A DNA stretch of 64,000 nt from a virus (IMGVR_UViG_3300009008_000005:64001-128000), one strand, 5' to 3'; counted from the first letter of the stretch, positions 32,322 to 60,321 are shown. Made by a program: numbers and translations. The notes: generated by a model from the letters alone, not told the origin.

Positions 32322-32603
32322 TGACTGCAAAGAGTGTGGATGTAGCAAGGGTACCAGGCGAGTCTAGTAGAACAACGTGAGACGCATAGGGCACAGTACG
32401 CACGAGACCAACTCAAGATGAACTCACTGCTGCGAGAACTGAACCTGGCTAAGCACGTCATTGGGATGTGCCGTAACCAGCTCCGTGAGTTCGTAGCCAT
32501 CGAGGAACGAGGGACGGATTACGCAAAGCTCCACGGCCCAGCAGTTATACAAGCCGCTCTCGACGCAGTGGAGGACTTCTATGAGCGAGGAAAAGAAACC
32601 TAG
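32314..32603 (+). pseudogene. Small gene with apparent 1-nt deletion near 32352
   Basis: MSDDCKECGCSKG joins YQASLVEQRETH... if one base is added. Confidence 0.4.
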
Positions 32604-32826
32604 AGTCCTGAGCAAGGAACTGGTGGACCTGTCAGATCAGGGCTACAGAATGTCCTACGAGGACCAGAAAACATTCCTTCAAGCCATCGTTGAAGGGTCT
32701 AGCCGTCTTGGGATAGAGGCTAAGAAGATAAAGCCTAAGGAGGTAAAGAAGAAGGCCGTGCCTCCTAAGAAGCCTAAACCTGTCGGCTCTCGCCTAACCA
32801 GAGTAAAGAAAAGGCGTAAAGGCTAA
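32581..32826 (+). CDS. Basic protein ending GSRLTRVKKRRKG
   Basis: Followed by terminator. Confidence 0.7.
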   Translation: MSEEKKPRVLSKELVDLSDQGYRMSYEDQKTFLQAIVEGSSRLGIEAKKIKPKEVKKKAVPPKKPKPVGSRLTRVKKRRKG

Positions 32827-32853
32827 ACAAGGGGGCTACGCCCCCTGTTTACC

Positions 32854-33162
32854 TCATGGTTCCTCTCCCCGAAGCTCTGCAGGGATACTGAACATCCAGC
32901 GGGTGTTGGCCGGTCTTCCCGACCACTTGTTGAGGATCACGAAGCTCTCCATGTTGCGAGGCATGATATCAAGCCTTCCGTCCAAATCCGAAGGCATGAC
33001 GCACACCCGAACACGGGCCTTCTTGTCCTTGACCTTATGGCGGAGGATGTTCTCGATCACGGGACGGAACATCTCGAATGGTACAGGTGAGCGGAGAGCA
33101 GCGACCCTCGTCTCCAACTCCGTCTGTACCTCGACAGCCAACTCCGAGTACTTCTCTATCAT
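32854..33162 (-). CDS. Hypothetical protein (paralog family RWxFxIP)
   Basis: ILNKWSGRPANTRWMFSIPAEL; GGAG RBS. Confidence 0.65.
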   Translation of the reverse strand: MIEKYSELAVEVQTELETRVAALRSPVPFEMFRPVIENILRHKVKDKKARVRVCVMPSDLDGRLDIMPRNMESFVILNKWSGRPANTRWMFSIPAELRGEEP

Positions 33163-33440
33163 CGTCGACTCCTCTCCACGTCCTCCTCCACAAAACGCAT
33201 CCAGCATTCCGAAGGATCCGGGATAGAGCACCCGAGTTCACCAGGGTCACCAGGTTGCGTCCAATCGCAGAAGGACGGTTCGTCGCCAGCTCCGAAGAAC
33301 ACGCCCCTCGGGCATTCGCCTCCTCGGAGGTCACAGACCATGTCGGCCAGAGCGTACTTCACCTCATCGTCAACGGACCGGATCATCCGGTGTGGAGTCC
33401 TAAGTGACCTGCCGCTCACGTTATCGTCTCGTTGTGGCAT
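33159..33440 (-). CDS. Cys-rich protein (C..C..C..CW family)
   Basis: GECP ... FCDW ... GC ... ECWMRF. Confidence 0.6.
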   Translation of the reverse strand: MPQRDDNVSGRSLRTPHRMIRSVDDEVKYALADMVCDLRGGECPRGVFFGAGDEPSFCDWTQPGDPGELGCSIPDPSECWMRFVEEDVERSRR

Positions 33441-33945
33441 CGTGTCCTATCTCCTGCTCTACGTTCTCCAGCTCCGCTGCTATCTGCGTCGCAGCCCTTC
33501 GCTGAGCGAGGAGGATCCAGCAATCCCTTGTGGGATCCTGCTGGCATCCATCTCCGTCGAAGGTGCAGAAATCTCTGATCTCCGACGTGGGCATGTTCTC
33601 CTCGTCATGAAACCGGTTCAGAGGGCACCCATCAGCGTCAGCTAGGAAGTCTGCGAGGAACAGGTTCATGCGGGTCCGCTCATCGAGGTTCGCACGGAGC
33701 CGTAGGTTGTCCAGAGACAACTCAGTGACGGGTCGAGCAGGTCGGACTCCTGCAGGCTCTTCCGCCACGTCCACCAGGTAGGAATCCAACTCATCGATGC
33801 GGGTACCAGCGAGGACCTCATTGGCCTCCCACCGGTATGTAGGTCCGGATGCCTGCCTCGAACCGGAAGGACCAAGCATGCTCGACCCACCGGAACCCGG
33901 TCCAGTCCTCGGTCCTTGATACACATTGTCATCATCTATCGGCAT
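33421..33945 (-). CDS. Cys-rich protein (C..C..C..CW family)
   Basis: DGCP ... FCTF ... GC ... DCWILL; ATAAGA motif upstream on minus. Confidence 0.65.
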   Translation of the reverse strand: MPIDDDNVYQGPRTGPGSGGSSMLGPSGSRQASGPTYRWEANEVLAGTRIDELDSYLVDVAEEPAGVRPARPVTELSLDNLRLRANLDERTRMNLFLADFLADADGCPLNRFHDEENMPTSEIRDFCTFDGDGCQQDPTRDCWILLAQRRAATQIAAELENVEQEIGHDATTRR

Positions 33946-34624
33946 TTTTCCATCTCTCCTCTGCTGCATTCCATACTGATTCTCTTATACCCGATGCAGC
34001 TATCTCCCGAGCCGTTGTCTTGGCTGGGCCTTCTTTACGTCTACGGAGCCTCTTGAACCTACTCCCAGGCTCGTCCAAGAAGTCTATCGACCACTTGATC
34101 TCGATCTCCTGTTCCTTGGGTTTTTCCTCAGAGAATAGTTCCAGGCGTTCTAACCCAGCCAGATTCCCGAACCCCATCAGTGGACGGCGTAAAGACTCTC
34201 GCCAGTTGTAGTCCTCCATAGCGGACTCCCTCACACCAGGTGCAAACGCATCACCATTGAGGTTCGGTATACCTGCAACCGTCTGTTCCCAGGAGGAATA
34301 AATGATCCCATTCCTATTGGGGTTAGGTCTACGGAAGTCGCCACCCTGTCCGTGGAACCAGGGCTCGGGCTTCGGCGGAGTCCAGAGGAGGCTAATCGAA
34401 TCCCGATCCATCCAGGGCTTTACGAGCAAGGAGTAGTGCCGATACCACGCCTCCATCTGTTTCTGATATGCCCTGTATGCATGGAGAGCTTCTGCGAGGT
34501 TCTGATAGATCCGATCTGACCTCACGGCAGTACGTGGATGCAAAGGTTCGGTCGGGTGCTGCACGATAGAGGTGTCGAAGAATCGTGGATTTACGTTCCG
34601 GTAGTAGCTCTCTGGGATAGGCAT
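33932..34624 (-). CDS. Hypothetical protein
   Basis: 230 aa, GGAG RBS; contains GSRFKRLRRRK. Confidence 0.65.
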   Translation of the reverse strand: MPIPESYYRNVNPRFFDTSIVQHPTEPLHPRTAVRSDRIYQNLAEALHAYRAYQKQMEAWYRHYSLLVKPWMDRDSISLLWTPPKPEPWFHGQGGDFRRPNPNRNGIIYSSWEQTVAGIPNLNGDAFAPGVRESAMEDYNWRESLRRPLMGFGNLAGLERLELFSEEKPKEQEIEIKWSIDFLDEPGSRFKRLRRRKEGPAKTTAREIAASGIRESVWNAAEERWKNADR

Positions 34625-34801
34625 CTACTCCTCCGCTGTGAAGGGCACAACCTCTGAGCCGGGGTTCTCATCCGATACGTCCTGCGCCTCTTCCCGTGTG
34701 GAGAAGGCATTCCACCAGCCCGTTGTTGTGGTCCACCCGTAGTTGAAGTGATCCCACCACATTCCGGCCTCATTCCGCACAAGGTACAATGCCTCATCCA
34801 T
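34625..34801 (-). CDS. Small Trp-rich protein
   Basis: Manual translation MDEALYLVRNEAGMWW...; GGAGG RBS. Confidence 0.55.
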   Translation of the reverse strand: MDEALYLVRNEAGMWWDHFNYGWTTTTGWWNAFSTREEAQDVSDENPGSEVVPFTAEE

Positions 34802-59131: not shown

Positions 59132-59357
59132 GACCGGGATCGGTAGGTCCAGCGTCTGCGAGAGGGGAAAGAGGTGCTCGGAATGCAAGGGTGATCTGGT
59201 CAAGTTCTACACCGGGGACTTCTATCTCGGAGACGAGGGGAAGCTCGTGTTCAAGATCTGCTGGAAGTGCCGCTGCGGTAGTGCCTACTACAGCGAGGAT
59301 GGAGGCAGAGACGCACCGCCCAGGCTGAAGAGAGCTGCGAAGCTCGTTCTGAAGTAA
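59115..59357 (+). CDS. Zn-ribbon protein
   Basis: CSEC ... CRCG. Confidence 0.6.
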   Translation: MSLLSKTGIGRSSVCERGKRCSECKGDLVKFYTGDFYLGDEGKLVFKICWKCRCGSAYYSEDGGRDAPPRLKRAAKLVLK

Positions 59358-59389
59358 GAAAGAGGGGAGGGGCTTCCCTCCTCTCTTAC

Positions 59390-59653
59390 CTAGCCCTCTT
59401 CGATTACTTGTTCAATCTGGTTGATCACGACGTCGACTACCAGCCTGTCTATACTGGTCTGCTCGTCTGGCCCAGAATTCTTGTAGGCCTCTGAACATGA
59501 GGGGCACAGAACGGCCTTCGCCTCTCCGTATGGAGTAGCGATGTGCATCTCAAGGAACTCGACGACTGCAGGGTCCTTGTACTCTTCCCTGCAGACTGGA
59601 CACTCGTGAACACTGAGTGCCTGCCAAAGTCTCTTACTATCTTCATCGGGCAT
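59390..59653 (-). CDS. Zn-binding small protein
   Basis: CPVC ... CPSC. Confidence 0.6.
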   Translation of the reverse strand: MPDEDSKRLWQALSVHECPVCREEYKDPAVVEFLEMHIATPYGEAKAVLCPSCSEAYKNSGPDEQTSIDRLVVDVVINQIEQVIEEG

Positions 59654-59658
59654 TGAAA

Positions 59659-59997
59659 TCACAGTCCAGGTAGTTTCCCCACTCCTACAACAGGAGGCTT
59701 GATCCTGTCCAGGATATCTTTGATCTTGTCTATATGCCCCCCATCCATTATGTCGGGAAAGGCGCTAAGGAGGGAACTGTAGTCCTCATCAGCCTTCTGG
59801 AGAGCTTGCCGTGCCTTGCCTATCTCTCCATTGGACACATAGCTCATCGCATCCTCGATGTAACCGCTTATGTCGCTACTGCTGCCCTCGATCTGATCCG
59901 TGATCTCAGTAGCACAGTCCTCCAGATAATCCTCTAGGTCACTGCTGAGGTCCTCGATGAGGTCCAGCTCCGAGTCCAGGCTTATGTTATCGTCCAT
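59659..59997 (-). CDS. Acidic helical protein
   Basis: GGAGG RBS; D/E-rich heptads. Confidence 0.7.
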   Translation of the reverse strand: MDDNISLDSELDLIEDLSSDLEDYLEDCATEITDQIEGSSSDISGYIEDAMSYVSNGEIGKARQALQKADEDYSSLLSAFPDIMDGGHIDKIKDILDRIKPPVVGVGKLPGL

Positions 59998-60018
59998 AAT
60001 AAACCTCCATAGAACATC

Positions 60019-60321
60019 CTAGGGCCTGGGGTTGCGTGCCGCAAGTCTCTGCAACCTTGTGCCCTTGCTGAAAACCGTGTCCCCTTCTTTAGGGATGGGC
60101 CAGTCTATGTTGAAAGTAACGTCGGGTGTGACGCATACCGGGTAGCTGTTTGAACCTCGCTCCCCTAGACAGGTGACCTTTGCGTGCGTGATGTAAGGAG
60201 TAAATTCAAACTCGATATCTGCAAGCTGTTGGTCGGTGGCCCGGTCCAACACTGTCAGCTGGATGCCGCCACCCACCCCATTCATGGTGAGGTGGAGGAC
60301 GACACCCTCAGACTTATACAC
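60019..60321 (-). CDS. Hypothetical protein ending GTRLQRLAARNPRP
   Basis: GTG start, operon fit. Confidence 0.55.
   Translation of the reverse strand: MYKSEGVVLHLTMNGVGGGIQLTVLDRATDQQLADIEFEFTPYITHAKVTCLGERGSNSYPVCVTPDVTFNIDWPIPKEGDTVFSKGTRLQRLAARNPRP

Follow-up and report, generated by a model that had tools for sequence, protein, structure and literature searches.

Why should largely unrelated proteins of one phage carry the same short basic peptide, in most cases close to their C-termini? This question is raised by a 64,000-nucleotide stretch of viral DNA (IMGVR_UViG_3300009008_000005:64001-128000; hereafter, the window), which comprises bases 64001-128000 of a 180,825-bp IMG/VR phage record with a CheckV completeness estimate of 99%. 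Coordinates given as "window" count from base 64001, and those given as "genome" count from the start of the 180,825-bp record. A first-pass annotation, made from the sequence alone, had noticed the peptide near the C-terminus of about eight proteins that seemed to share nothing else, and had proposed that it is a docking or sorting motif, possibly read by a ubiquitin-like (Ubl)/E2 system. Our analysis found 11 copies of the peptide, referred to here as the tag, with the consensus [G/x]-[S/T/G]-R-[L/F]-x-R-[L/I/V]-x-x-[R/K]-[R/K]. The tag is a real motif, which is selected as a peptide, is conserved in orthologs, and co-varies with the type of C-terminal tail found on an AAA+ ATPase. It probably serves some specific docking function. 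As a more tentative proposal, which we favor while holding it somewhat short of probable, it is a flexible docking element, imitating the AAA+ tail and tied to the AAA+ module.

A six-frame scan of the window located all eight peptides in the open reading frames (ORFs) that the annotation had named, and a genome-wide scan revealed three more copies elsewhere in the phage. The original count was therefore right for the window and too low for the genome. The description "near the C-terminus" stood in part: in 7 of the 11 copies, 2-4 residues separate the end of the tag from the stop codon, whereas four ORFs run 12-39 residues past the tag and one copy is probably N-terminal. The enrichment of the tag was determined using the strict pattern G[ST]?R[LF].R[LIV]..[RK]. 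In the analyzed gene set, this pattern was observed 8 times, as compared to 0.05 expected from whole-protein shuffles, and 6 times at no more than 16 residues from the C-terminus, as compared to 0.002 expected from the same shuffles. When only the last 25 residues were shuffled, so that the local Arg-rich composition was kept, the 6 observed sites compared to 0.014 expected, and none of 5000 shuffles yielded more than 1. An Arg-rich background, which the annotation had singled out beforehand as the possible undoing of the motif, thus does not account for it. A position-specific scoring matrix (PSSM) of the tag, applied to the gene set without carriers m5, m6 and m11 (Table 1), found eight sites of at least 23 bits, the next best site reaching 15.

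A weaker tag-like sequence, D-R-I-K-R-F-K-R-V-R, is present 19 residues before the C-terminus of an 822-aa basic multi-enzyme protein and scores 13.5 bits. This match could be taken to favor a virion-loading signal, which would pack the carriers into the capsid for injection. However, the eleven clear carriers are encoded in the accessory region, outside of the structural blocks, and we consider virion loading to be highly improbable.

The surroundings of the tag were examined along with its sequence. The tag has a net charge of +4 to +6 over 11 residues, and Pro makes up 12% of the 15 residues that precede it, as compared to 5.8% of residues in the proteome. Since the ORFs of m2, m5, m6 and m11 run 12-39 residues past the tag into the next gene, a free C-terminus is not required. 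In an AlphaFold2 model of m10 (predicted local distance difference test score, pLDDT, 80.5), a globular body extends to approximately residue 280, residues 281-288 have pLDDT values below 50, and the tag is predicted to form a short, low-confidence helix at residues 289-296. The modeled fold had no usable match by Foldseek against the PDB, nor in the protein atlas. This anatomy is standard for a short linear docking motif. The only carrier with orthologs is m10, for which seven proteins of 22-28% identity were found. Each of these seven proteins ends in [S/T/G]-R-[L/F]-x-[K/R/S]-[L/I/V]-x-[K/R/Q/D]-[K/R/E], and the first Arg of the tag is one of 18 invariant columns in the family, while the preceding linker varies. 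Conservation in orthologs, on which the annotation had staked its proposal, therefore holds for this carrier.

A terminal, flexible and basic tag on small accessory proteins might also be expected of a degron or unfolding handle for host ClpXP, Lon or FtsH, timing the removal of accessory proteins without the phage AAA+ module. ClpX recognizes a basic C-terminal class typified by MuA, which ends in R-R-K-K-A-I. Two observations argue against a degron and make it, in our judgment, decidedly improbable: a free C-terminus is not needed, given the four ORFs that continue and the copy that is probably N-terminal, and the tag co-varies with phage AAA+ tail type across phages with probably different hosts, as described below.

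The codons of the tag indicate the level at which selection acts. Ser is encoded by TCT, TCG, AGT and AGC, Arg by CGN and AGR, and Leu by CTN and TTR. Because both codon families are used for each of these residues, selection acts on the peptide and not on the DNA. The annotation had proposed a comparison of the motif codons at the DNA level; the codons differ between copies, and a DNA-level repeat was ruled out by this diversity. It could nevertheless be argued that the tag is a functionless by-product of translational coupling, in which an AGGAGG Shine-Dalgarno (SD) sequence is read as Arg-Arg, together with local duplication of the 3' ends of genes. In m3, m5, m6, m7 and m11, the codons of R8/R9 spell AGGAGG or AAGGAG and precede the start codon of the following gene by 4-8 nucleotides. 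Specifically, the last Arg codons of m3 (AAGGAGG) provide the SD for the gene that follows, the ATG of which overlaps the m3 stop codon (ATGA); AGGAGG in m5 is the SD of m4, the GTG of which overlaps the last Arg codon of the m5 tag; AAGGAG in m6 is the SD of a gene with its ATG at 46253; and AGGAGG in m7 is the SD of the next gene, again with an ATGA overlap. Furthermore, CTA is used for 10 of the 19 Leu codons of the tags, as compared to 14% genome-wide (p about 2e-4), and the cores of the adjacent genes m4 and m5 are identical at 13 of 15 bases. This likeness hints at copying, and some copies of the tag probably arose in this way.

However, only 5 of the 11 tags contain an SD, and in these it extends over no more than R8/R9. 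The other six are without one, including those of m1, m4, m8 and m10, and the m9 tag is probably N-terminal. SD placement was consequently rejected as the explanation of the motif, and we take the SD role of the last Arg codons to be secondary and not what gave rise to the sequence. Neither SD use nor CTA preference and copying explains the six SD-less copies or G-S-R-L-x-R-L, with its two codon families for Ser, Arg and Leu. In view of the retention of the tag in the m10 family at 22-28% identity and the local shuffles, which reject a composition effect, we give hardly any credence to a by-product. The 37 tRNA genes of the phage include those for tRNA-Leu(UAG), tRNA-Arg(UCU) and tRNA-Arg(CCU), which read CTA, AGA and AGG, codons that are common in the tags.

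Sequences resembling the tag were also found on a AAA+ protein. A Ycf46-type (SpoVK/Ycf46/Vps4-class) AAA+ ATPase module is located at genome 134.4-138.8 kb and consists of the AAA+ protein (PF00004, 9.9e-22), DUF2997 (2e-4) and DUF1257 (5e-6) proteins, a radical SAM protein, a ParB-HTH protein and a RecA-like protein. In this phage and in G001 alike, m10 is located upstream of the AAA+ gene at a distance of 1.4 kb, with identical gene order. G001 is the sole relative whose genome could be compared; it has in common 64 of the 248 genes of the phage, at approximately 42% identity, with almost none of them within 60-130 kb. Among the 120 best AAA+ homologs, the bacterial members mostly end in ...R-[K/Q/R]-[I/L]-[E/D]-[L/I/M/V]-stop. 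The closest phage AAA+ tails (...T-R-L-R-R-L-P-G-S-stop, ...S-T-V-K-R-L-R-A-R-R-P-stop and ...S-T-V-K-K-L-R-L-K-R-P...) fit the register of the tag, x1-Φ2-x3-[R/K]4-Φ5-x-x-[R/K]-[R/K], with matches in P0003, P0004, P0006, P0007 and G001. In G001, the AAA+ tail is the third-best match in the proteome to a PSSM built from the tags of the window's phage only, and the G001 tags (G-R-L-K-K-I, T-R-L-Q-K-I and S-R-L-S-K-I) share with the G001 AAA+ tail a Lys at position 4. A basic stretch of the G001 DUF2997 protein, S-G-M-K-R-L-R-T-K-R, was considered as a common tail and rejected, being the usual basic K-K-P-E-F region of the DUF2997 family. The open frame of the RecA-like ATPase overlaps the 3' end of the AAA+ gene by approximately 60 codons, across the sequence of the tail, and likewise in G001.

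Tag type was then compared to AAA+ tail type in other phages, by counting the core R[LFM].R[LIV], as defined on the window's phage, among the final 25 residues of the proteins. Two phages with basic AAA+ tails, G002 and G003, are related to it only through the AAA+ gene (34-35% identity). In G002, the core was found 3 times, as compared to 0.41 expected (P = 0.008), in the tags S-R-L-L-R-I, K-R-L-I-R-I and K-R-M-L-R-L. In G003, the AAA+ tail of which is K-I-R-R-I-R, it was found 3 times, as compared to 0.55 expected (P = 0.017), in the tags R-F-I-R-V, R-F-I-R-L-stop and R-M-I-R-I-stop. The basic-tail phage G000 had 8 R-Φ-x-R-Φ ends, as compared to 1.4 expected. In contrast, 61 control phage loci with AAA+ tails of the acidic or R-x-Φ-[DE]-Φ-stop type showed no excess of the R-Φ-x-R-Φ core (2 observed, 4.3 expected). 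Instead, in 29 loci with net-neutral AAA+ tails, most of them R-x-Φ-[DE]-Φ-stop, there were 34 Φ-[DE]-Φ-stop ends, as compared to 16.8 expected. Because an excess of R-Φ-x-R-Φ is seen in phages with basic tails and is lacking with other tail types, tag type follows AAA+ tail type. This co-variation was observed on small samples. A BLOSUM comparison of AAA+ tails with the tails of neighboring proteins at 67 loci gave a weak average difference (11.3 versus 10.6), with a signal only in the pattern-specific tests.

At one further locus, L050 (IMGVR_UViG_3300024259_002152, a 350-kb phage; approximately 3400-21100), the AAA+ protein ends in ...K-D-L-D-L-stop, and the ending R-[F/A/V/M]-[D/E/G]-[I/M]-L-D-L-stop is found on at least seven further ORFs within 10 kb; this is an acidic counterpart of the tag system.

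From these sequence patterns, we infer that the tag binds a protein, which partner it may bind, and what the binding may bring about. The tag would be specific to its lineage and form a short amphipathic helix of basic character, R1-Φ2-x-R4-Φ5-x-x-R-R, with Gly/Ser at its head. Accessory proteins that are otherwise unrelated would present it on a flexible end rich in Pro. By sharing it, all of the carriers would be brought to one putative reader. Because the tag copies the AAA+ C-terminal tail of related phages, the Ycf46-type AAA+ module, through one of its parts or partners, is the most likely candidate for this reader. The carriers might then compete with, or be handed to, the binding partner of the AAA+ tail, as clients or adaptors of the unfoldase.

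Several points weigh against this proposal. The tag patterns were set after the data had been seen, although the margin of the enrichment is far larger than a post hoc choice of pattern could explain. All of the comparison phages were found via the AAA+ gene, so that the sample consists of phages with the module. The excess of tags in G001 is small, 3 versus 0.34 expected with the m10 ortholog included. In the window's phage, the AAA+ tail, Q-Q-G-S-R-R-S-L-A-R-R-G-R-V-K-R-R-L-P-S-G-S..., is tag-like only, with no clean match, and its coding sequence lies in the overlap between the AAA+ gene and the RecA-like open frame. The N-domain of the AAA+ protein, in an AlphaFold2 model of residues 1-230 (pLDDT 93.7), has a degenerate AAA+ fold that matches AAA+ folds only, and by this model it would not be a known peptide-binding adaptor domain (MIT, p97-N). 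Finally, the charge of the AAA+ tail was negatively related to that of the N-domain, strongly so in raw and cluster-level data, but the relation was lost under independent contrasts (r = -0.09, p = 0.23) and was rejected.

The high net charge of the tag and its flexible end are also consistent with an arginine-rich nucleic-acid tether, i.e. a basic helix by which the carriers are kept on the DNA or RNA of phage or host without any protein reader, in the manner of an arginine-rich motif (ARM) or a "molecular sled" peptide. We regard this explanation as unlikely. Gly/Ser and a pair of aliphatic residues with constant i, i+3 spacing are among the invariant positions, which suggests a pocket of defined shape and not charge alone. 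The ARM class consists of Arg clusters that lack fixed hydrophobic residues and bind structured RNA; the fixed Leu and Gly/Ser positions of the tag argue against membership in it. Moreover, the matching tails of other AAA+ lineages, if equivalent, are acidic or neutral and unable to bind nucleic acid.

A different reader was suggested by the first-pass annotation, according to which the tag might mark substrates or partners of the phage Ubl/E1/E2/JAB system. The Ubl operon does lie immediately upstream of m10 and of the AAA+ module. However, neither sequence nor co-variation evidence was found to link the tag to E2, E1 or JAB, with no check made for a Ubl operon in G002 and G003, and we consider a Ubl mark to be very unlikely. 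Thus, while the short linear motif of the original proposal is supported by enrichment, peptide-level selection, Pro-rich linkers and orthologs, its reading by Ubl/E2 received no direct support, and the evidence favors the AAA+ module, which the annotation had not mentioned.

The tagged genes sit among small genes of the accessory region, and their products were compared with each other and with databases. Pfam and PHROGs searches with ten carriers yielded nothing usable and no common family, and no homologs of m3, which has a hydrophobic segment at its N-terminus, were found in 5.8 billion proteins. An all-against-all BLAST of the carriers detected the motif region only, apart from weak similarity between m6 and m7 (E = 0.002), which are probably distant paralogs judging by this match. 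The carriers as a single paralogous family were thereby rejected, and the earlier impression that they share nothing else held for all but this pair. The m6 and m7 proteins have a common hydrophobic stretch, G-[Y/F]-[I/L]-V-R-G-W, approximately 40 residues before the tag, and an untagged 84-aa gene lies between their genes. Beyond the tag, the m2 ORF continues for 33 residues, with a 38-nucleotide overlap with the next ORF (33421-33969), the m5 ORF for 23 residues, inside m4, and the m6 ORF for 39 residues. The overlaps of the m2, m5, m6 and m11 ORFs with the next gene, 32-119 nucleotides, are unusually long for phage genes. The stop codon of m1 is directly followed by a G+C-rich hairpin and a T-run, resembling an intrinsic terminator.

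The host of the phage is a bacterium, since the phage uses SD sites and encodes a protein with a peptidoglycan-binding domain; its RNA polymerase is a single-chain beta/beta-prime enzyme. A search of IMG/VR with the m10 alignment recovered only G001, single-protein searches for related loci with m3, a 444-aa neighbor and the RNA polymerase found none, and one metagenome scan found no member of the clade of this phage. The coordinates of the carriers and associated features are listed in Table 1.

Table 1. Tag carriers and associated features of the phage.
Feature	Coordinates	Strand	Tag or remark
m1, 81-aa ORFan	window 32581..32826	+	G-S-R-L-T-R-V-K-K-R-R at 32785-32817, 2 residues before stop
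m2, 230-aa ORFan	window 33932..34624	-	G-S-R-F-K-R-L-R-R-R-K at 34034-34066
m3, 206-aa ORFan	window 36110..36730	-	L-G-R-L-H-R-L-R-A-R-R at 36119-36151
m4, 157-aa ORFan	window 36758..37231	-	E-G-R-L-A-R-L-H-K-R-K at 36770-36802, 3 residues before stop
m5, 137-aa ORFan	window 37158..37571	-	G-S-R-L-V-R-L-R-R-R-R at 37230-37262
m6, 192-aa ORFan	window 46135..46713	-	M-S-R-L-E-R-I-R-R-R-R at 46255-46287
m7, 117-aa ORFan	window 46957..47310	-	G-S-R-L-E-R-L-K-S-R-R at 46966-46998, 2 residues before stop
m8, 100-aa ORFan	window 60019..60321	-	G-T-R-L-Q-R-L-A-A-R-N at 60031-60063, 3 residues before stop
m9	genome 50152-50688		M-G-R-L-E-R-L-K-R-R, probably N-terminal; ATG with good SD, directly followed by G-R-L-E-R-L-K-R-R
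m10, 321 aa	genome 132968-133933		C-terminal end G-S-R-L-S-R-L-A-K-K-S-G-S-V-S
m11, 147 aa	genome 49740-50183		P-T-R-L-E-R-L-R-R-R-R, 12 residues before stop
SD-in-tag sites	window 36110-36131, 37229-37241, 46251-46264, 46957-46977; genome 50135-50154		start of next gene overlaps tag or lies at most 8 nucleotides after it
tRNA-Leu(UAG), tRNA-Arg(UCU) and tRNA-Arg(CCU) genes	window 12395-12468, 12797-12871, 13136-13210		
Overlaps of tagged ORFs with next gene	window 33932-33969, 37158-37231, 46135-46253; genome 50152-50183		
Terminator-like hairpin after m1	window 32827-32860		
m6/m7 region	window 46135-47310		
822-aa basic multi-enzyme protein	genome 44445-46913		
E1 gene of Ubl operon	genome 130797-131522		
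RecA-like ATPase frame	genome 136811-137662 (L012:1393-2244)		

The tag was compared with known docking peptides, of which the tails of Ycf46-type AAA+ proteins and their gene neighbors are the nearest at hand. These are likewise terminal peptides on flexible linkers with the register Φ2-x-[K/R/Q]4-Φ5, the bacterial ones mostly ending in ...V-R-[K/Q]-L-E-[L/M]-stop, and neighboring and other proteins of the same genome carry the tail type of the ATPase. The phage tag differs in that x-x-R-R takes the place of the acidic residue and free C-terminal hydrophobe, in its additional Arg and Gly/Ser lead-in, in its independence of a free C-terminus, and in its spread to 11 proteins genome-wide. In the case of the HbYX tails of activators, among them the proteasomal ATPases, a C-terminal docking peptide of an AAA+ ring is also borne by unrelated proteins that reach the same receptor. 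HbYX tails need a free C-terminus and a penultimate Tyr, whereas the phage tag does not need a free C-terminus. Phage T4 offers a parallel in gp43, gp55 and gp33, unrelated proteins with one short C-terminal peptide for one hub, the gp45 sliding clamp; these clamp-binding peptides are hydrophobic and acidic, while the tag is basic.

Cofactors of p97/Cdc48 bind its N domain by means of the VCP-interacting motif (VIM; Rx2h3AAx2Rh) and the VCP-binding motif (VBM; EhRRRRLxhh) (PMC5389986). Similar to the tag, these linear motifs are helical, rich in Arg and carried by unrelated proteins, in their case docking onto an AAA+ unfoldase, and p97's C-terminal tail, which is unstructured, is itself a docking site. 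Residue spacing differs, however, and the tag has no Ala-Ala core or in-register R-R-R-R-L run; nor does the phage AAA+ protein have a p97-type N domain (double-psi barrel plus beta-barrel), its modeled N-domain being a degenerate AAA+ fold. The MIT-interacting motif MIM1 has the consensus LxxRLxxL[K/R], a register of L-x-x-R-L as compared to L-x-R-L in the phage tag. The MIM1 and MIM2 motifs of ESCRT-III proteins bind the MIT domain of Vps4 (PMC11218997). As with the tag, C-terminal amphipathic Leu/Arg helices occur on several proteins, and here they are read by an AAA+ protein of the same broad class (SpoVK/Ycf46/Vps4), but no MIT domain is seen in the phage AAA+ protein (Pfam detects the AAA domain only, and the N-domain model has an alpha/beta AAA-like fold). 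By analogy, the tag would work like VIM/VBM, MIM1, T4 clamp tails or HbYX tails, yet it fails the sequence or reader-domain test for each of them.

Our literature search on the Ycf46/DUF1257/DUF2997 module, its tails or shared phage tags found nothing relevant. By means of shared docking peptides, cells and viruses connect many proteins to a single hub, and to our knowledge few are known in phages, the clamp-binding tails of T4 being an example. What is new here is the attachment of such a peptide, of a known kind, to an unstudied machine. A more far-reaching possibility, which we think unlikely, is a remodeling pathway run by the phage, in which a Cdc48-like AAA+ unfoldase beside a complete Ubl/E1/E2/JAB cassette reads R-L-x-R-L tails, and tagged accessory proteins and AAA+ subunits would be unfolded, relocated or retired on schedule. 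If true, this would amount to a ubiquitin-Cdc48-style system in a bacteriophage, with an address code changed from the bacterial ...R-K-L-E-L-stop to lineage-specific forms. Independent of such a pathway, the tag marks eleven proteins of a "dark" accessory region that have no annotated function, and connects them with an unstudied AAA+ module, one widely distributed among phages and bacteria. The identity of the reader, if found, would provide the first functional handle on these ORFans and on the Ycf46/DUF1257/DUF2997 module, as well as a rule, a match to the AAA+ tail, by which clients of the module may be recognized in other genomes.

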